Of a stretch of DNA of 64,000 nucleotides, positions 7,990 through 43,086 are shown piece by piece. The DNA is from Candidatus Bathyarchaeota archaeon. GTDB taxonomy: Archaea; Thermoproteota; Bathyarchaeia; TCS64. The position numbers were made by a program, and so were the translations under genes. Below the pieces are notes generated by a model. The model worked only from the letters and a program-made list of their open reading frames with translations. It made no database searches and was not told the origin of the DNA. The DNA is taken from assembly GCA_963769425.1 (NCBI GenBank), contig CAVYLP010000004.1:32001-96000 (forward strand), read 5' to 3'. Within the stretch, counting starts at the first letter, position 1. Every line of letters begins with the position of its first letter.

Positions 7990-8430
7990 CTAACCCTGAG
8001 CCCGCTTTCTCCTGTATTCTGACAGACGCTCGTTTAGTTGTTTGTCAGAGATGGCGAGCATCTCGACGGCTAATAGGGCCGCGTTCTTTGCGCCGTCGAT
8101 GGCGACGGTGGCCACTGGGACCCCGGTGGGCATCTGTACGATACTCAGGAGGGAGTCTATGCCCCCGAGCTTGACCTCCTTCGGGACGCCGATTACGGGC
8201 TTGATGGTCTGGGCGGCGACTACGCCGGGTAGTGCCGCTGCGAGACCGGCTATGCAGATGAAGACCTGCGCGTCTGTGCCCTCGACGTACTGGGTTAGGG
8301 CCTTCAGGTTCCTGTGGGCGGAGAGGGTCCTCTGCTCGTACTCGACCCCGAACTCCTTGAGGGTTGAGGCGGCTGCGTCGCTGAGCTCCTTGTCTGAGTC
8401 GCTGCCGACTATGATGGCGACCTTTGGCAT
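7990..8430 (-). CDS. purE: AIR carboxylase / N5-CAIR mutase PurE
   Basis: GSDSD, SAHR, AGLAAALPG, PVIGVP, QMPTGVPVATV; true start ATG 8430. Confidence 0.96.
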   Translation of the reverse strand: MPKVAIIVGSDSDKELSDAAASTLKEFGVEYEQRTLSAHRNLKALTQYVEGTDAQVFICIAGLAAALPGVVAAQTIKPVIGVPKEVKLGGIDSLLSIVQMPTGVPVATVAIDGAKNAALLAVEMLAISDKQLNERLSEYRRKRAQG

Positions 8431-8527
8431 GGGGTAGGATTGGGGTGATCTGCTTATGAAAGTAGTCCCACGGTCGGAGTTCTGGGGCGGGTAACGCTTA
8501 TCCCCGACTCTCATTCCATTTGATTCG

Positions 8528-8713
8528 ATGTCCGTGCTCAGAATATTCTTTTTCCCCGTGGGAGTCTTCCTCGTCTTCATCGGCACCGTCCTCGCCCTCG
8601 ATTCACCTTTCATGAAGGCGTCCCTCGACGGCGTCAAGTTCATCAGGAAGAACAGGCGCGTCGTTGGGATAGCGATGGTCCTCGTCGGCTTCGCCGTCAT
8701 GGCACTCAGCTGA
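8528..8713 (+). CDS. Small two-TM membrane protein
   Basis: 61-aa hydrophobic ORF filling the gap. Confidence 0.5.
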   Translation: MSVLRIFFFPVGVFLVFIGTVLALDSPFMKASLDGVKFIRKNRRVVGIAMVLVGFAVMALS

Positions 8714-8766
8714 ACCGGCGAAACAATCATCTAATCGATCGCCACCCTTGTTCAGCGGAGATTTGC

Positions 8767-9096
8767 ATGATCTACGAGTGGAGAGTCTACGAGGCCTACC
8801 CGGGCAGGATGGACGCACTAAACGAGCGCTTCGCCAAGACCACCCTCAAGTACTTCGAGAAGCACGGCATCAAGGTGATAGGGTTCTGGACCGCCCTCAT
8901 CGGCACCAGCAACGTCCTCTACTACATGCTCGCGTACGACGACCTCGCCCACAGGGAGAGGGCGTGGAACGCCTTCAGCACCGACCCCGGCTGGGTCAAG
9001 GCGCGCACCGAGACAGAGCAGAGGGCCGGCGGCCCCCTCACGGAGAGGATCGTGAACATGATCCTCAAGCCCACCGACTACTCCCCAATGAAGTAA
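8767..9096 (+). CDS. NIPSNAP family protein
   Basis: IYEWRVY..PG, HGIKVIGFW, LKPTDYSP. Confidence 0.9.
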   Translation: MIYEWRVYEAYPGRMDALNERFAKTTLKYFEKHGIKVIGFWTALIGTSNVLYYMLAYDDLAHRERAWNAFSTDPGWVKARTETEQRAGGPLTERIVNMILKPTDYSPMK

Positions 9097-9233
9097 CTGG
9101 AGCCCTCAATTTACTAAAAAGTTCTCAATTTCTTAGCTCCATAGAGCCTCCCGGGGTGAATGGCTTTAAAAATGTCACAAAATGGGCATTTTAACACACC
9201 AAGACGATCATTAGGAAATTTAGAGACGACTCG

Positions 9234-10145
9234 TCACTCCTCGTGCATCTTAATCGCGTCGTATAGCCCTGCGATGAGAAACTGAACGCCGACGCCAAGG
9301 AAGAGCCCAGAGTCGAAGACGAGGCTATCATACCTCTGCCTGAGCGAGGGCACCTCGAACCCAACTCTGAACGACTGGAGCAGTGAGTACCCCTGTGGCA
9401 ACCCGAAGGGAACATACCCCTCCATGACGAGGGACCTGTGCCCCCCGGTTTCGTTCCTCCAGTAAATGGTCTCACCCACCGGCTGGGGCACGGCCTCGGT
9501 GACGCGAGAGTCTGGGGGGAGCTCCACCATCAGGGAGACGAACGGGTTCCCCCCCATTGGGACCGCCTCGGGCCTAGCCGCGGAGAGCGCGGCTGAGTCA
9601 CTGTTCGAGAAGGGCACTAGGAGCTCGTAGCTTGTGTAGCTCGTCTTCTCAGCGACCCCGTACCACCTGAAAGATAACAGGACTCTGTATATTTCGCTCT
9701 TAGAGACGGGTTTGAAGGTGTAAGACATGATAGTGACGCCCTCAGCTTCTACCCACTCGGCTGAGGCGTCGCCGACGTAGTAGATCTCCTTCTTCTCTTC
9801 ATCAAACCCAACGATCTTGAAGAAGGCGAAATCCACCTTGTTGGGCACCTGGAGGCCCAATGTAACATTTCCTTCCGGGTTCATGCCGACCTCGACGTCG
9901 AGGGTACAGTCCGCGTACCCGCCATCGAGCGAGACGGACTCAACGACAAACGTAATGTTATTCGCGCTGATGCCCCCATACGCGAACGGTAGAATACCAT
10001 AGTATGGCAGCGTCGCGGTCGGGGGACCCCTCGACAGCTCGAGGAAGTCCCCTACGCCGACAGCCGTGAAGACCAGTCCCACGATGAGAGGAAAATACAC
10101 CACTGCGGCCTGCACGAGGGTACGCCGGGAGTAGCGGGGGGCCAT
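9234..10145 (-). CDS. Hypothetical membrane-anchored protein
   Basis: 303 aa; N- and C-terminal TM segments, beta-rich centre. Confidence 0.7.
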   Translation of the reverse strand: MAPRYSRRTLVQAAVVYFPLIVGLVFTAVGVGDFLELSRGPPTATLPYYGILPFAYGGISANNITFVVESVSLDGGYADCTLDVEVGMNPEGNVTLGLQVPNKVDFAFFKIVGFDEEKKEIYYVGDASAEWVEAEGVTIMSYTFKPVSKSEIYRVLLSFRWYGVAEKTSYTSYELLVPFSNSDSAALSAARPEAVPMGGNPFVSLMVELPPDSRVTEAVPQPVGETIYWRNETGGHRSLVMEGYVPFGLPQGYSLLQSFRVGFEVPSLRQRYDSLVFDSGLFLGVGVQFLIAGLYDAIKMHEE

Positions 10146-10288
10146 AGATTAAGCTCACCTGGGGCGAATAAAGCATTTAGTGTAAACAAACAACAAATGG
10201 TCATACGACGCCGTGGTGCGTATACTGAACCATTCAATCTTTACGCAATTATTTTTTTCATTATCTATGGTGGTGCAAGTTGGTGGGG

Positions 10289-36900: not shown

Positions 36901-37242
36901 CTAGACCTCGGCGAAGTTGAGGGCGCCGTCGGTTATCGAGAGTTCGTAGAGCATGTTCGGGTAGGGCTTGAGGCGGAAGCTCTCAAGCTCCTCCCCCGTG
37001 AGGATCAGGGTGAGCTTCATCTGCTCATAGTCCTTACCCATACCTGGCATTACATTCTGGAAACTCTTCGTGACCTGAACTATCATCTGCCCGATCTCCT
37101 CTGGGACGTCGGGGTTGGTCATCATCATTACGGGTGGGCGCTGCCTGACCTCGACGAAGTCGATCTGGTAGCACTCCCTACCCTCCATGTCCTTCACCGA
37201 CTTGACGGATTGGACCTTGATCCTGATCCTGGAGCTGATCAT
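36901..37242 (-). CDS. Arcadin-1-like protein
   Basis: 113 aa; D..G....IDFVE...P.V and KLTLILT.EE.E.F...YEL.I.DG match my recollection of Pyrobaculum arcadin-1. Confidence 0.7.
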   Translation of the reverse strand: MISSRIRIKVQSVKSVKDMEGRECYQIDFVEVRQRPPVMMMTNPDVPEEIGQMIVQVTKSFQNVMPGMGKDYEQMKLTLILTGEELESFRLKPYPNMLYELSITDGALNFAEV

Positions 37243-37277
37243 CCCGGAATATGTCCCCCATTGTAAGATGTAAAGAT

Positions 37278-38040
37278 ATGTTTCCACAAAGTAAACCCGG
37301 ATATCGGTCGGTTCAGGTGTGGACGAGTCGCGTTAGTCGGTCGGCACCGGCTCAAGTGGCGACTCTGAGTCGCTGGATTGGTGGGCTAGCAGTTAACGGT
37401 GGTGAGTTGGCGGGGCTGAGTCCCGATGAGCTTGTCGCCTTTCAATTAGAGAGTAAAGACTACGCGATCCTTGACCTTCTCCAAGCGTGGATTCTGAACC
37501 TCGGAGGAAGGGCGGGGAGTAAGGAGCGCTGCAATAACACTATTCGGAGCATCTTTATGCATAACCGCGCGGAGCTTCCCCGGGATCGGGGCTTCTGTGT
37601 GTCGAGTGAGGAGGCGCCGGTTCGTGGCTCGCTGAGCCTTGAGGAGGTGCGCCACATCCTCGACGCCTCGAATCCGCTTAACCGCGCCGTTATTCTCTCA
37701 ATGGTGTCGGGTGGGATGGGCTTCGGAGAGGTTGAGTATTGGAATCGGACAGGGCTCGCGAGGCTTAGTCAACAGCTAAGAGATGATGTCCGCCCCATCC
37801 GAGTGGACCTCTGGGGCGTAAGAGGTATCGAAATAAGCGACCTTTCTATACTTGGCTCGGCGAGGATGCGCGGACGGCTCTCGTAGTCTACCTCGCTAAG
37901 AGGGTCGACGCGGGTCCCGAGATTTTTATCACTCAGATGAGGACGCCGCTAACCCACGACACGATGCTTACCTATTGGCTTCGAACGTTTCGGGTCCTCG
38001 GCCTTATCCCGGTGAAGGAGAAAACGCCGCGGGAGAAGGC
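37278..38040 (+). pseudogene. Tyrosine recombinase/integrase remnant (frameshifted, C-terminal catalytic part missing)
   Basis: IRSIFMHNRAELPRD, LSLEEVRHIL..NRAVILSM..GGMG..E; shifted frame continues PFYTWLGEDA..AL..YL...IF; no HxxR or catalytic Tyr seen. Confidence 0.72.
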
Positions 38041-38301
38041 GACGTGCCTTTCCGCGATGTTCTCCGAGTCGAGGGCGTCGGTGCACCCCGCGGCTGAGTG
38101 GTTGACGGCTTCGAGGCTCGCCCCCAAGCTCGCGATCTTGGCGTCGATCTCGTTGAGCCGCGCCGTCTCCTCGGCGGTGAAATACTCCTTGGCGCCGGCT
38201 GAGGCACCTCTTTATCGCGGCGCCAATAGGGGCGCCTTCTCGGCTTCTAGGGCGTTGATCTGGTCGACGAGCGTCTTCCGGGTTTCCTCGATCGTCATCA
38301 T
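37974..38301 (-). pseudogene. Small coiled-coil protein gene with in-frame TAA (38212-38214)
   Basis: MMTIEETRKTLVDQINALEAEKAPLLAPR*RGASAGAKEYFTAEETARLNEIDAKIASL... Confidence 0.5.
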
Positions 38302-38311
38302 ATTTACTCAC

Positions 38312-38364
38312 TTCCGTAAATTAGTAAATACCACTACGTATTTAAGACTTACGCATTTACGAAA
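38312..38364. promoter_or_regulatory. Inverted repeat between divergent element genes (candidate RHH operator)
   Basis: TTCCGTAAATTAGTAA (38312-38327) vs TTACGCATTTACGAAA (38349-38364), 13/16 complementary. Confidence 0.55.
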
Positions 38365-38385
38365 ATAGGTAAAGTTTATATTGAT

Positions 38386-38715
38386 TTGATGTCTAATTAC
38401 TATCCGATAGAGATGAAGAAACTGACCGTGATGCTCAACGACGACACTGAAAAAAGCCTTCGCGAATATGTTACTCGCAACTATCCGACTCAACCGTTTG
38501 GAAAACTCAGCGAAGTCGCCAACCACGCAATCGCTCACTACATTAATGATCACGTTGTAACTGGACGTATCTCTCGATGGGAGCCAACCAATAAACTCGT
38601 TATTGATGTAATTGAACAGACAGAGAATAATGCAGGCATGTCTTTCTTTACAGGTGCCGTTTTCGGGAAGTATCTCGGAAAAAAAGTGCGAGTTGTAATC
38701 GAGGAACTTGATTAA
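38386..38715 (+). CDS. Ribbon-helix-helix DNA-binding protein with C-terminal extension
   Basis: KKLTVMLNDDTEKSLREYV...GKLSEVANHAIAHYI. Confidence 0.75.
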   Translation: MMSNYYPIEMKKLTVMLNDDTEKSLREYVTRNYPTQPFGKLSEVANHAIAHYINDHVVTGRISRWEPTNKLVIDVIEQTENNAGMSFFTGAVFGKYLGKKVRVVIEELD

Positions 38716-38915
38716 CCACCTTTGCTCACCTCCCCGCCAACCGTAACTCAGGGCGGACGACGATTCAGCAACCTTTAAACTATTGAATCGATAGGACCCA
38801 CTCGGGGAAGCGCGGAACGGCATAGCCTAGACACCTAAGCCGAACCGGCCACCCCACATTAATAAATAGACCTGAAACCTTAAGCGGGTAGTCACCTGAA
38901 AGTGAAAACCTTTTA

Positions 38916-40220
38916 TTATTTTTTACATTCATCAATTTTATATTTTGTTCTATATAATTGAGCTAAGGTTAAATCTCTTCTTCGAGCTATGTTTTCAACA
39001 TCCATAAATCGCGAAGCAATCCAATCGGATACTTTTCTTAAATTACTAGGTTTTGTTTTAACCGTCGAGTCTGTTTTATCTTCTATAACTTTTTCTGTAC
39101 CATACACTACAATATCTGATAACGCATTATAAAATTTAGCTGTTTTTGATTTAGCTATTTCTTCAATCTGACGATTATAATCCACTAGTTTAGAATTTAG
39201 ACGCTCTGAATATCTCATTGCATAAGGATCTTTCCTAATTCGATCTGTTATTTTCCGAATTGCTCTTGTAGAACTACTATCCATGAGATCTAGATAATTG
39301 CCGAGATCTATGTCGGAGGTATATTTCACTCCAAGTCCTGAAACTATTGTATCATAAAAACCCTCTTTTTCCGATATGTTAGAAAAAAGGCCGAAAGACT
39401 CTTTTGCAATAGAGCAATTTGTTTCTATTGTAGCTTGAAAGTTTCTTGCAATTATTACATCGGAAGAGAGATTAAGAGAACTTTCAGGGTACTTAAGTGT
39501 TAATATACGTTTTTTTGGAACTCCAAGTCGATATAATTCAGCAATGTAATCTACATACTCGTTTTCTTCTTCCTTTGAAATATCTAAATTAAAATCTTTA
39601 ATTTCGCCTCTTGCTTTATCAGTTAATTCTTCACATCTTTTACAAAGATTTTTAACACTTTCGCATTTATTAAATAAATAAATCAAGTTCATATATTCGG
39701 AAGATATTCTCGGCAATCCCGGTTCTAAGAAAACATTTATAAAATCAACATCATAGTCGGAATATGAAGTTTCAAAATAGGGAATAATTCTTCCTTTTTC
39801 AATAAATTTAATGAAATCATTTATTTTAATATTATTAGTGGATTCAAAAGATTCTGCGGTCATTTTTTTTCCAAATTCATAATCATTTGGTATAGGATAA
39901 ATTAAAGTATCATACAATGGGGTTAAGGAAAAAATTAAATTATTAGACTCTTCTTCAGAGAATCCACACTTTGCATTAGAAGGCGATGCATAAGAGCAAG
40001 GAACTCTTGGAATGAAAACTCGGGACGATTTTATTTTAAAACCCAAAATATCGTCTATCGTTAATTTTCCTTTTTCAGCTTTTTCCCAATTTTCTTCCAG
40101 ATAACTGGAATTTTCTTCATCAATTTTTTTAAGTTTAGACAATTTAAAGATTAAGAGTCTATATTGGTCTTCAATAATATATTTTTTTAGATGCAGAAAC
40201 AAAAAAAGGCTTGGAAACAA
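38916..40220 (-). CDS. AT-rich hypothetical protein (start possibly TTG 40142)
   Basis: Long open frame in very AT-rich DNA. Confidence 0.8.
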   Translation of the reverse strand: MFPSLFLFLHLKKYIIEDQYRLLIFKLSKLKKIDEENSSYLEENWEKAEKGKLTIDDILGFKIKSSRVFIPRVPCSYASPSNAKCGFSEEESNNLIFSLTPLYDTLIYPIPNDYEFGKKMTAESFESTNNIKINDFIKFIEKGRIIPYFETSYSDYDVDFINVFLEPGLPRISSEYMNLIYLFNKCESVKNLCKRCEELTDKARGEIKDFNLDISKEEENEYVDYIAELYRLGVPKKRILTLKYPESSLNLSSDVIIARNFQATIETNCSIAKESFGLFSNISEKEGFYDTIVSGLGVKYTSDIDLGNYLDLMDSSSTRAIRKITDRIRKDPYAMRYSERLNSKLVDYNRQIEEIAKSKTAKFYNALSDIVVYGTEKVIEDKTDSTVKTKPSNLRKVSDWIASRFMDVENIARRRDLTLAQLYRTKYKIDECKK

Positions 40221-40299
40221 AACAAATCCCTAGATTCATAAAAATTATATTAACCAAAGTCTTCCGCGCGAAGCTCCACGAGGACATAGAGATTGACGC

Positions 40300-40319
40300 C
40301 GTCACCGTCGCTGACCTAC
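40300..40319 (+). repeat. Inter-cassette repeat copy 1 (encodes VTVADL)
   Basis: CGTCACCGTCGCTGACCTAC, 18/20 identical to 41159-41178. Confidence 0.8.
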
Positions 40320-40354
40320 CAACAAAACGGGCGAAATGTTCAATTTAATTTTTA

Positions 40355-40957
40355 TTAGATGCAATAAGCTATAGCCCAAAACAACCTCAAAAACAATAAT
40401 GAAATTATCAGTCCCATCGAAATAGACAAAACAACAAAACTCCAATTTTTTAACCTACCATTCAGATTAAAAACTTTATTTTGAAATACATCAACTATAC
40501 CAGATTTTTTCATCGTTTGATATTCATAATGTCTTATAATTTGATAAGACCATATTAATTTCAGAGCACAATAAGAAAGCATTGATATTAAAAGGAATAA
40601 AAATACAACAAGAATTCTATATTCAGTAATAGACACCATATTATCCAGTACTGAAATATTATTTATTCCACCAACTACAGTTGAATTTTGAACAATATTT
40701 TGAGGTTTTAAAAGATTTAACACAGAAAAGATTCCTACAAAAGACGATAGAGTTAAAGTAGCCCAAATACTCTGCCTACTCAACTCAAACCGAATTCTAT
40801 CATTAAATTCTTTATAAGAAATAGGCATTTGTTGAAGAGCGTTTTGGCCAATCCATAATATATAAACGAAATAGTCTTCTACTAATAGGAATAACAAAAC
40901 GAAAATAAGTAACTCATTACTTTGAAGTGAATTAAAGATACAATTACTAGGGTTCAA
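40355..40957 (-). CDS. AT-rich multi-TM hypothetical protein (start uncertain)
   Basis: 200-aa ORF with 3-4 TM segments. Confidence 0.7.
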   Translation of the reverse strand: MNPSNCIFNSLQSNELLIFVLLFLLVEDYFVYILWIGQNALQQMPISYKEFNDRIRFELSRQSIWATLTLSSFVGIFSVLNLLKPQNIVQNSTVVGGINNISVLDNMVSITEYRILVVFLFLLISMLSYCALKLIWSYQIIRHYEYQTMKKSGIVDVFQNKVFNLNGRLKNWSFVVLSISMGLIISLLFLRLFWAIAYCI

Positions 40958-41158
40958 ATTTTAAACCATTATTTGTTACCTTACTTTAAATATTTTTTGG
41001 TCAAAAACACACGCTTTCCAATTAAAAATACCTAAATAGTTCCACTAGTTGCAGTTTTCTAAAAAAAAATGTAGTTACGAGAGCCTTTCGACCGCTACCT
41101 TAACAGATTTGAAAGGTCGACCTCGATCCACGAAGATCGAAGTCGAGACTGTCATCAT

Positions 41159-41178
41159 CGTCACCGTTGCCGACCTAC
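41159..41178 (+). repeat. Inter-cassette repeat copy 2 (encodes VTVADL)
   Basis: CGTCACCGTTGCCGACCTAC. Confidence 0.8.
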
Positions 41179-41211
41179 TGAAAAAGGAAAAGAGAGAGGC
41201 TAAAATTCTGA

Positions 41212-41955
41212 CTAATTAATATCTTCAAAAACAGTAATTCCAAATTCGCGTTTCTCAGATAATGTTTTTTCTTCATGGGTTTCATTTATCGCAATGAGAA
41301 TATGAACAATATAAGAACATAGTTTTAACTCCTCTTTTATATCACGTTCTGTAAATAATACCATTTTTGATAGGTTTTTACTATCTGGAAAATATGATAT
41401 TATTATAGAGGATTCTCCGTCGTCACTAGGAGATTCATTAATCATTACACGCAATCCATGTTTATATGAATTATATAACTCTCTTTGCTTTAGATAATAA
41501 TCACTAATTTTTAACAACTTATCTTTGAAGGATAAGCAAGATTTTATACATTTATTTTTAATATCTTCTTCTAAATCTTCAATTGGTGGATATTGTAAAA
41601 GCCGACCCAGATAGCTAACATCAAACTTTTGAACGTTGTTATAAAAATCAATTATTTTTTCAACATCATATTTAAAAAGTTCCTCATGAAATAATTTACT
41701 ATTTTTTCTAGCAATTAAATTCGAAGCTAACGTTTCAGCATACATTACCGTCGTTATCATACACTCCAATTTAATCGAGCCCTTAATTATATTGAATAAA
41801 TTTGGATCATCAACTTTATGATCAACCGTCGTAGTAGGATCGAGATAGGCTTTCTCTAAGATTTTTAATTTAATATAAGGCCAATAAAGTGCTTGACCAT
41901 TAGCCATTATAAACGCCGAAGCTACATTACCCTGATAAGACATCCAAGAAACCAC
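41212..41955 (-). CDS. AT-rich hypothetical protein, possible HEPN-like
   Basis: 247 aa, helical; RELYNSYKHG motif. Confidence 0.75.
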   Translation of the reverse strand: MVSWMSYQGNVASAFIMANGQALYWPYIKLKILEKAYLDPTTTVDHKVDDPNLFNIIKGSIKLECMITTVMYAETLASNLIARKNSKLFHEELFKYDVEKIIDFYNNVQKFDVSYLGRLLQYPPIEDLEEDIKNKCIKSCLSFKDKLLKISDYYLKQRELYNSYKHGLRVMINESPSDDGESSIIISYFPDSKNLSKMVLFTERDIKEELKLCSYIVHILIAINETHEEKTLSEKREFGITVFEDIN

Positions 41956-42195
41956 CTAACAAATATACAAAGATGAAACAAAGAAAAGAGTTTTCGCTTA
42001 CGCCTTTTTAGCTCCAAAAATAGAAACCCGAACCCGTTAGAAGACGACGAAAATCTATTAATACCTAAAGGAAGTTGGAAATACACTTAACTTTAAGAAT
42101 AAATCAGTAAATAACCGACAATTTTATAAGCAGTCTTGGAGCTGATCATGGTCTTCTCCTCAAGAAATGGGTGGGCGTGTATAAATGATTGGGAG

Positions 42196-43086
42196 CTACT
42201 CCAACTCCCTCAACTTGTCCGCAATGAGCCCCGCGACGGAGACCCTGCTGAATGGGGTCTCGATTGTGTTAGTTGCGATGATGGGGTCGGCGCCAGCTTT
42301 CCTGATCTTCTCCTCCGCCCCCGGCATGTAGAGGACGTGCGTGCACGCCGCGGCGACCTTCTCGGCTCCCTGCGCGATGAGCGCCTCGACGGCCTTCGCC
42401 ATGGTCCCGCCGCTGCTTATCATGTCGTCGAAGACTACTGCTCTGCGCCCAGAGATGTTGAGGTCTTTGACAGCCATCGTGATCTCACCTGTTTTGCGGT
42501 CACGGGTCTTCTCGAAGAAATTGTAGCCTCCGTCGAGGACCTTTGAGGCGGCTTCGGCGATGTAGATGGCTCCCTTGTCTGGTGAGAGGCTGTATGCATT
42601 GTCGAAGCCCTCCTTCTTGAGGTACTCGGCGAGCAGGGGGACTGCGGAGAGGTTGTGGAACTTGATGTCATGCTTCTGCTCGATGCCCCGGGTTGAGGCC
42701 TCGTTGTGGATGTTGACCGTGACGAGGTCGGTGACACCCGAGCACTCTAGGAGGCTGAAAATAACGTCGAGGCTAAGTGCCTCCAGTTCCGTGAACCGCT
42801 TGTCTTGGCGGGCGTAGGCTAGGTACGGGACGACAGCTACTATGTCCTTGGCGCCGAAGTCCTTCGCAGTCCTCGCCATGAGGAGGAGCTGCATGAGCCT
42901 CGTGTCGGGGTTAGGGGCCGTGGTCTGGACGATTACGACCTTCTCGCCAGCCACGGGCTTCGTGAACTTAATATAACTCTCCCCGTCGGGGAAGACGCGG
43001 TGCTCGACGGGCTGCGGCTCCACGCCGAGTCTCTCCGCTATCCTCCAGCCGAGTCCGAGGGAAGAGGGACCGGGTATGACGATCAT
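42196..43086 (-). CDS. prs: Ribose-phosphate pyrophosphokinase
   Basis: FPDGE, PYLAYARQD, SPDKG, DDMISSGGT. Confidence 0.96.
   Translation of the reverse strand: MIVIPGPSSLGLGWRIAERLGVEPQPVEHRVFPDGESYIKFTKPVAGEKVVIVQTTAPNPDTRLMQLLLMARTAKDFGAKDIVAVVPYLAYARQDKRFTELEALSLDVIFSLLECSGVTDLVTVNIHNEASTRGIEQKHDIKFHNLSAVPLLAEYLKKEGFDNAYSLSPDKGAIYIAEAASKVLDGGYNFFEKTRDRKTGEITMAVKDLNISGRRAVVFDDMISSGGTMAKAVEALIAQGAEKVAAACTHVLYMPGAEEKIRKAGADPIIATNTIETPFSRVSVAGLIADKLRELE

Follow-up and report, generated by a model that had tools for sequence, protein, structure and literature searches.

Cryptic integrated elements inserted by tyrosine recombinases are known from archaea, including Thaumarchaeota; in the part of the published account on which we draw (PMC6563490), they integrate into protein-coding genes, form arrays through re-use of the site and, in the case of NitEve-E2, have an attachment (att) site of 13 bp. 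Here we analysed 64 kb of DNA from a Candidatus Bathyarchaeota archaeon (TCS64; contig CAVYLP010000004.1, positions 32,001 to 96,000; hereafter referred to as the window and numbered from its first letter) and found that the segment 37243-42136 is almost certainly a small, decaying mobile element of this kind. It was inserted by a tyrosine recombinase at a 13-bp site over the ATG of an arcadin-1-like gene; the element's own integrase is now dead, which probably leaves it stuck. Among its AT-rich cargo genes lie two copies of a 20-nt GC-rich repeat, the origin of which is the second subject of this analysis.

The limits of the insertion were defined by comparison with seven loci from seven congeners (genomes, contigs and loci are designated by G, C and L numbers, respectively), chosen as the best matches to the neighbouring ribose-phosphate pyrophosphokinase gene. 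The 4.9-kb segment is missing from five of the seven. In G008, G013 and G009, the sequences matching the left flank (up to 37242) and the right flank (from 42134-42136) are joined to each other with an overlap of 14-16 nt, and in G015 and G003 the matched flanks are 47 nt apart; in G012, the left flank lies outside the fetched stretch and the locus is rearranged. An exact 13-mer, TGGAGCTGATCAT, occurs twice in the window, at the left (37230-37242, the attL core) and the right (42137-42149, the attR core) ends of the insert, and in a single copy at the uninterrupted site of G008, G013 and G009. The GC content drops from 54-66% to 25-36% in the insert. Three features of integrated elements, namely a tyrosine recombinase gene near one end, flanking direct repeats and an empty site in relatives, were found here. 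We considered misassembly and rejected it, because on this 425-kb contig both ends of the insert lead back, through exact 13-bp repeats, into one and the same host locus. G016 carries a different lower-GC sequence of ~0.5 kb between the arcadin-1-like and pyrophosphokinase genes (L028, G016:C21, 11674-12180). The site between these two genes may be a recurrent insertion point.

The integration target is the arcadin-1-like gene on the minus strand (36901-37242), which scores 49.4 bits with Pfam PF18653, where the cut-off is 25. The left repeat includes the ATG of this gene (37242-37240): the last three bases of TGGAGCTGATCAT are its complement, indicating that insertion took place at the start codon, which the element restored. 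Beyond the right repeat comes the original upstream region of the gene, which is now 4.9 kb away from it. This region, right of 42149, has a TTTATA-like box, and the end of the element that now precedes the ATG has TTTACA ~30 nt upstream. With the TTTATA-like box moved off and TTTACA provided by the element, expression of the arcadin-1-like gene may, judging from the letters, depend on the element. The right host flank is formed by the ribose-phosphate pyrophosphokinase gene (42196-43086, minus strand; Pfam PF13793, 97.5 bits), which is syntenic in 17 of 17 congeners.

The integrase gene of the element is a pseudogene on the plus strand (37251-38020), detected by tblastn with intact relatives (E 8e-45), and its open reading frame (ORF) begins 9 nt inside the left repeat. 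Window positions 37290-38020 align to residues 20-268 of relatives that are ~375-398 aa long, residues 20-200 being followed by residues 200-268 after a frameshift near 37814. Past 38020, tblastn with the intact relatives found nothing recognisable of the catalytic C-terminal third. The frameshift and the lost catalytic end together suggest that the element can no longer leave its site. An intact relative, L064, matches PF00589 (Phage_integrase) with 32.8 bits against a cut-off of 27.1. Members of this family were detected in 22 of the 78 other genomes that represent the order, and lower-GC DNA was seen in the fetched stretches around several of them. On the minus strand at 38005-38394, where the C-terminal part of the integrase would be expected, we noticed a coiled-coil-looking frame (MTIEETRKTLVDQINALEAEK...) with one stop inside. 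This frame may represent another decayed gene; alternatively, it may merely mirror, on the opposite strand, a coiled coil in the C-terminal part of the integrase.

The cargo includes three AT-rich genes on the minus strand, encoding proteins of 434 aa (38916-40220; 29% GC), 200 aa (40355-40957) and 247 aa (41212-41955). The genes adjoining the repeat have 28-29% GC, with 19-22% GC at third codon positions; the contigs of the host genome have 52-57%. Between the AT-rich genes, the GC content rises sharply in only two places: patch 1 (40255-40335; 57% GC), which also holds a weak inverted repeat at 40274-40291, and patch 2 (41075-41185; 49% GC), which also holds an inverted repeat with 13-nt arms (41116-41128 and 41135-41147). 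Both contain the 20-mer CGTCACCGTYGCYGACCTAC in direct orientation, copy 1 at 40300-40319 (CGTCACCGTCGCTGACCTAC) and copy 2 at 41159-41178 (CGTCACCGTTGCCGACCTAC), with identity at 18 of 20 positions. The earlier note on this DNA, made from its letters alone, had described just such a GC-rich repeat in AT-rich DNA at these positions, and in this it was correct. A repeat-family listing of the window lengthens the pair to 27 positions, 22 of them identical. Both copies end shortly ahead of a stop codon, copy 1 at a distance of 35 nt from that of the 200-aa ORF (40355-40357) and copy 2 at 33 nt from that of the 247-aa ORF (41212-41214), again as had been claimed (33-35 bp). The two copies thereby bracket the 200-aa gene with a period of 859 bp. 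An additional, intergenic spike (38716-38890; 54% GC) lies behind the stop of the 434-aa gene. With this third patch included, all three AT-rich genes have a GC-richer stretch on their 3′ side.

To place the pair against chance expectation, we used shuffled sequences. At up to three mismatches, the 20-mer has only its two matches in the 64-kb window, and two matches arose in none of 100 shuffles. It is the sole direct pair with at least 18 of 20 identical positions in the island 38716-42136. In shuffles that keep the local composition, some direct pair of at least this quality appeared in 29 of 300, and a pair with at least 50% GC appeared in 0 of 300, this second test having been picked post hoc with the data already seen. 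We conclude that the 20-mer pair is unlikely to be due to chance. Two candidates for a third copy were rejected, neither being significant by shuffles or estimate: an 18-nt segment of the third patch (38717-38734), matching at 14 of 18 positions (130 of 300 shuffles were equal or better), and an inverted 14/16 match in the integrase gene (37335-37350). The similarity of patches 1 and 2 is restricted to 20-27 nt; with the 20-mer removed, their likeness is not significant (161 of 1000 shuffles equal or better). A second shared 10-mer, TCCACGARGA, stands 25 nt before the repeat in one copy and 32 nt before it in the other, and hence in different reading frames. It is the common apex of a weak inverted repeat that lies 8-11 nt ahead of each copy.

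Our preferred reading, which we hold tentatively and which is inferred from one instance, is that the 20-nt repeat (27 nt with mismatches) may be a recombination junction, consisting of att-type core halves or of a duplicated target, that brackets an 859-bp module with the 200-aa gene. The direct orientation, the single gene bracketed, the sharp end of the identity and the position in the GC spikes suggest such a junction scar. By analogy, a shared core with unrelated arms is the pattern of a site-specific or target-duplicating insertion. According to this scenario, the three unrelated AT-rich genes would have been carried as separate modules, and the GC-normal patches would be arms or backbone between them. 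The 859-bp module would have been inserted into an older element, or exchanged within it, leaving the 20-mer as the junction scar. The identity would stop sharply at the core since the arms stem from different partners, and the two mismatches would reflect age or an imperfect core rather than selection on a protein. Several observations weigh against this interpretation. The repeat has two copies in one genome, and we found no related locus with the same repeat and nothing that shows past recombination. Its likeness to the 13-bp att core of the element is limited to GCTGA-C. The sole integrase present is dead, so that the event would have to be old or made in trans. Two mismatches in 20 positions are unusual for a fresh target duplication, and both are at third codon positions, as coding constraint would also have it. 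Finally, the weak inverted repeat with the TCCACGARGA apex before each copy equally fits a protein-binding or regulatory site.

The coding alternative was that of the earlier note, which read the patches as diverged end remnants of one parent gene on the plus strand, that is, as 3′ tails of a conserved element gene at which cargo was repeatedly stacked. The reading on which this was built is accurate, with KVFRAKLHEDIEIDAVTVADLPTK and STKIEVETVIIVTVADLLKKEK on the plus strand and each of the two mismatches in a third position of VTVADL, where it is synonymous in that frame. A possible IE[IV][DE] match upstream of VTVADL and the host-like GC content of the patches also favour it, as does the integration of archaeal elements into 3′-distal parts of protein genes with a rebuilt ORF end, which the part of the account cited here documents (PMC6563490). 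However, a minus-strand frame reads RSATVT in both copies and shares its wobble positions with the VTVADL frame, so that it suits the mismatch pattern equally well, and two mismatches are expected to fall in one codon phase about one time in three by chance (estimate); for these two reasons the coding inference is weak. Moreover, the patches outside the 20-mer are not significantly alike, the TCCACGARGA motifs are out of frame with each other, and no intact plus-strand gene adjoins either copy. The tBLASTn-type search for an intact parent that the earlier note had proposed came back empty, the very outcome that it had named as speaking against it, within a scope comprising the own genome, ~860 related genomes (60 relatives, 400 genomes of the phylum and 400 of the class), 405 kb of related loci and viral contigs. 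Translated searches of the own genome in both frames returned self matches only. Among the 60 relatives, the 20-mer DNA motif had one one-mismatch match, compared with two control matches. At the DNA level, the 991-bp stretch yielded AT-rich noise and three 24/26-nt matches in the 400 phylum genomes. These three, two of which are independent, match patch 1 in the same frame of a conserved gene reading VEDIGVDAVKTGML (thiD-like as taken by eye); we rejected them as being within chance, ~0.15 such matches being expected (estimate). When the 400 class genomes were searched with a profile built from the two peptides, the best match had an E of 0.0017 per genome, and ~0.66 such matches are expected by chance; this match, a 10-residue identity (IIVTVADLLK) in one class genome, is antisense to an ABC-2 permease and was rejected. 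The 405 kb of related loci gave nothing above chance, the viral contigs contained no copy of the motif, and the suggested resemblance to Mrr-like or methyltransferase-nuclease fusions was supported by no search. The parent-gene part is therefore not supported within what was searched, and we regard this explanation as distinctly improbable. A related proposal is that the plus-strand small ORFs of 45 and 56 aa, which end soon after VTVADL, are themselves real paralogous small genes or antisense transcripts over the 3′ ends of the convergent genes, for example antisense regulators. Both frames are open and end 27-39 nt past the motif, and the wobble pattern is compatible with coding, but they have TTG starts only, the first of them extends into the start region of the 434-aa gene, their likeness spans 6-10 residues only, and they have neither a family match at E ≤0.1 nor relatives beyond chance in the 400 class genomes. 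It is extremely improbable that they account for the repeat.

Alternatively, the repeat could be a cis-acting intergenic signal, either an operator for a regulator of the element (for instance, the 109-aa protein described below) or a terminator-promoter module resembling the PeSL units of phages that also promotes gene shuffling. Both copies are intergenic in a row of co-oriented genes, right after U-rich tracts behind the upstream stops, and each follows the inverted repeat with the TCCACGARGA apex; GC-rich islands within intergenic DNA of 25% GC suggest constraint. A precedent exists in the PeSL cassettes of T4-type phages, which, as far as the cited account goes (PMC2839356), are conserved promoter and stem-loop units that flank ORFans and recombine. 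RNA folding nonetheless gave ordinary energies for the repeat-bearing patches (z-scores of +0.73 to -0.96, not significant), and the patches had no Rfam match at E ≤1. The most stable fold tested was that of the third patch, 38716-38890 (z -1.69; 12 of 200 shuffles equal or better). In addition, the partial palindrome of copy 1 is not retained in copy 2, there are two copies only with none upstream of the 247-aa or the 109-aa gene, and the distances to the downstream start codons are unequal (~80 and ~200 nt), whereas those to the upstream stops are equal. A signal of this sort is thus an unlikely explanation. A repeat that has neither function nor a site-specific history appears likewise unlikely; it would be a coincidence or a short duplication made locally, through slippage or through microhomology-mediated repair while the island was being assembled as a patchwork. 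This reading would agree with the presence of two imperfect copies only, with the lack of conservation elsewhere, with the visible decay of the element and with the 29 of 300 composition-keeping shuffles that contained some 18/20 direct pair. It agrees less well with the absence of a GC-rich pair from all 300 of those shuffles and of two matches from the 100 shuffles of the window, with the near-identical distances to the stops (33 and 35 nt) and with the location of the copies in patches 1 and 2, the sole places between the AT-rich genes where the GC content spikes sharply.

The integron-like accumulation that the earlier note envisaged has no counterpart in the features that we examined. We scanned 38700-42150 on both strands for the attC cores R″ (RYYYAAC) and R′ (GTTRRRY) at 45-160 nt from each other; no pair at this spacing was found, and no core heptamer lies inside the patches. 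The intact integrase relative L064 did not match the integron-integrase model TIGR02249 at E ≤0.1, and its score against the XerA/integron model was 31.7 bits, compared with a cut-off of 220. The three AT-rich cargo genes, lying on the minus strand, converge on the plus-strand integrase gene, which is not the direction of an integron array.

The cargo genes were characterized individually. The proteins of 109, 434, 200 and 247 aa have no match in Pfam, PHROG, PADLOC or NCBIfam; they have no paralog in their own genome and are mutually unrelated. A tandem duplication of a gene-plus-patch unit was rejected because the cargo genes are not paralogous. The 109-aa ORF (38386-38715, plus strand; 42% GC) resembles, by eye, a ribbon-helix-helix regulator. 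For the 200-aa protein no relatives were found beyond its own cluster; inspection of its sequence by eye suggests that it is probably a membrane protein. The structure models of the 434-aa and 247-aa proteins have middling confidence (pLDDT 67.4 and 70.4, respectively). Foldseek found no match to either at E ≤0.001, and VIA-align, applied to the 434-aa model alone, gave a best Z of 6.5 that is restricted to the C-terminal helices. An Atlas search with the cargo returned unnamed clusters only, and the viral contigs contained no relatives of the 434-aa or 247-aa proteins.

The 434-aa protein, the true start of which is probably near residue 22-30, belongs to a Cys-rich family with 16 relatives at 40-45% identity, none of them with a Pfam domain; C186, C193, C196 and C269 are invariant, and C222, C225 and C250 nearly so. 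Six loci of this family were fetched, comprising four relatives that match over most of the length, a frameshifted partial one (L035) and a marginal match of 33 residues (L036). In L031, from a Bathyarchaeota metagenome-assembled genome (MAG), the relative lies in a 2.5-kb low-GC islet beside a different tyrosine recombinase of 316 aa, an arrangement (7995-10264) that looks like a minimal two-gene islet. In L034, a metagenome contig of 375 kb, it stands alone between two housekeeping-looking genes, named by translation only. The four relatives' loci have no upstream motif in common with the window, so the GC patch does not travel together with the 434-aa module. For the 247-aa protein, the protein collection contains two relatives, and a search of 400 class genomes detected relatives in 4. 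One of them (L099, 4606-6639) is found in a sharp islet of 26-38% GC beside a gene with an AlbA_2/Schlafen domain, and a broken one (L100, 3566-4767) in an AT-rich islet beside a PIN/MazE pair. Given these neighbours, the 247-aa gene may be of a defence type. Its motif LYNSYKHGLRV is invariant in the family, and we take it to be reminiscent of HEPN-type R/N-x-x-x-H motifs. The cargo neighbourhoods look accessory or defence-like. No other cargo gene of the window is shared at the loci of the 434-aa or 247-aa relatives. In other Bathyarchaeia-type genomes, members of both families stand in solitary AT-rich islets among different neighbours, whereas here they belong to an insertion borne by an integrase; the cargo is accordingly modular. 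Thus, the variable, cassette-like cargo of the earlier note is borne out as far as modularity is concerned; its parent gene and integron-like stacking are not.

Longer arrays in related MAGs, which the earlier note had suggested looking for, were found in the form of repeat-separated gene rows, but with a repeat different from that of the window. By scanning the DNA beside the integrase relatives, we found that at both integrase loci of congener G012 the genes of a row are separated by CAGGTGGAAGTGAGGATAAGGCTAT (L062, G012:C15, 902-6120; L059, G012:C29, 10834-14224). Copies of its 23-nt core, GGTGGAAGTGAGGATAAGGCTAT, were counted with a tolerance of three mismatches, and the reversed pattern served as a control; the control had no match in the counted genomes and a single match in another genus in the family search. 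The core is present in 143 copies in G012, 61 in G011, 42 in G002, 41 in G009, 32 in G016, 20 in G013 and 12 in G005. The own genome has 10 copies (C1:3439, 7196, 94564, 313134 and 335982; C4:188259, 191778 and 411331; C6:70324 and 905163), none of them inside the window. Overall, this highly conserved intergenic repeat occurs in 12 of 17 congeners and is nearly absent from the other genera of the family, and thus specific to the genus. Neighbouring copies on the same strand have a median spacing of 706 bp and, in the sense of the genes, the unit is located a few bases past one stop and ~18-25 nt before the next start. We examined 78 congener copies, of which 46 are followed by a gene starting with MVD or MID; DUF4760 (PF15956) is matched by two genes of this type, one with 49.8 bits, above the threshold, and one with 17.4 bits, below the cut-off of 25. 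Elsewhere, the gene behind the repeat is unrelated, for example a ketopantoate-reductase-like one. The repeat matched no Rfam family. It may act as a leader or promoter, as an RNA element or as a site of recombination; in the plainest case, it may simply be a leader that has stayed conserved while its gene family expanded. As a candidate for site-bounded gene shuffling it is nevertheless much better than the window pair. A bolder hypothesis is that the 20-mer and its GC-rich, hairpin-prone arms are recombination sites of a non-integron single-gene cassette system, through which AT-rich orphan genes would move singly and pile up in integrase-borne islands, with the G012 arrays and their 23-45-nt repeat perhaps a second, active case. 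We consider it highly improbable.

As it stands, the locus illustrates a routine course of events, in which AT-rich orphan genes enter an archaeal chromosome on small integrase-borne elements that subsequently decay. For annotation purposes, the island should be marked as foreign, the integrase as dead and the arcadin-1-like gene as separated from the upstream region that it once had. A working recombination site, were the repeat to prove one, would mean that archaeal islands can exchange single genes with no need of integron machinery. Such exchange would have implications for the spread of orphan and defence-like genes among uncultured archaea, a point that one instance is insufficient to establish.

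Comparison with known systems, as far as the parts of the accounts cited here describe them, places the locus as follows. Like the PeSL cassettes of T4-type phages (PMC2839356, PMC4122927), the window has short intergenic units that flank ORFans and copies of which could mediate the exchange of modules. Unlike the window pair, with its two copies and no significant stem-loop, the PeSLs of those accounts are promoter and terminator stem-loops present in many copies in a hyperplastic region, and their function has been shown. With integrons, including the archaeal ones (PMC9668308), the locus shares co-oriented, unrelated single-gene modules beside a tyrosine recombinase gene and a distinct non-coding patch behind each. 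It differs from integrons, as that account presents them, in that the intact integrase relative does not match TIGR02249, in that no R″/R′ pair at attC spacing and no significant hairpin was found, in that the genes converge on the integrase gene, and in that two sites only share 20 nt instead of a 7-nt core plus structure. The cryptic integrated elements of archaea (PMC6563490) differ from the window element, within what is described there, in their location: the latter sits at the 5′ end (the start codon) of its target and not in a tRNA gene or a 3′-distal region. It also departs from them in being only 4.9 kb long, with an integrase pseudogene and cargo ~25 GC points below the host. The correspondence with these elements nevertheless extends to the integrase at the border, the short flanking repeats (13 bp in both), the protein-gene target, the empty site in close relatives and the cargo without assigned function. 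The locus is almost certainly a decayed archaeal integrated element with orphan cargo, of an already known kind, in which one short repeat is perhaps a recombination scar.

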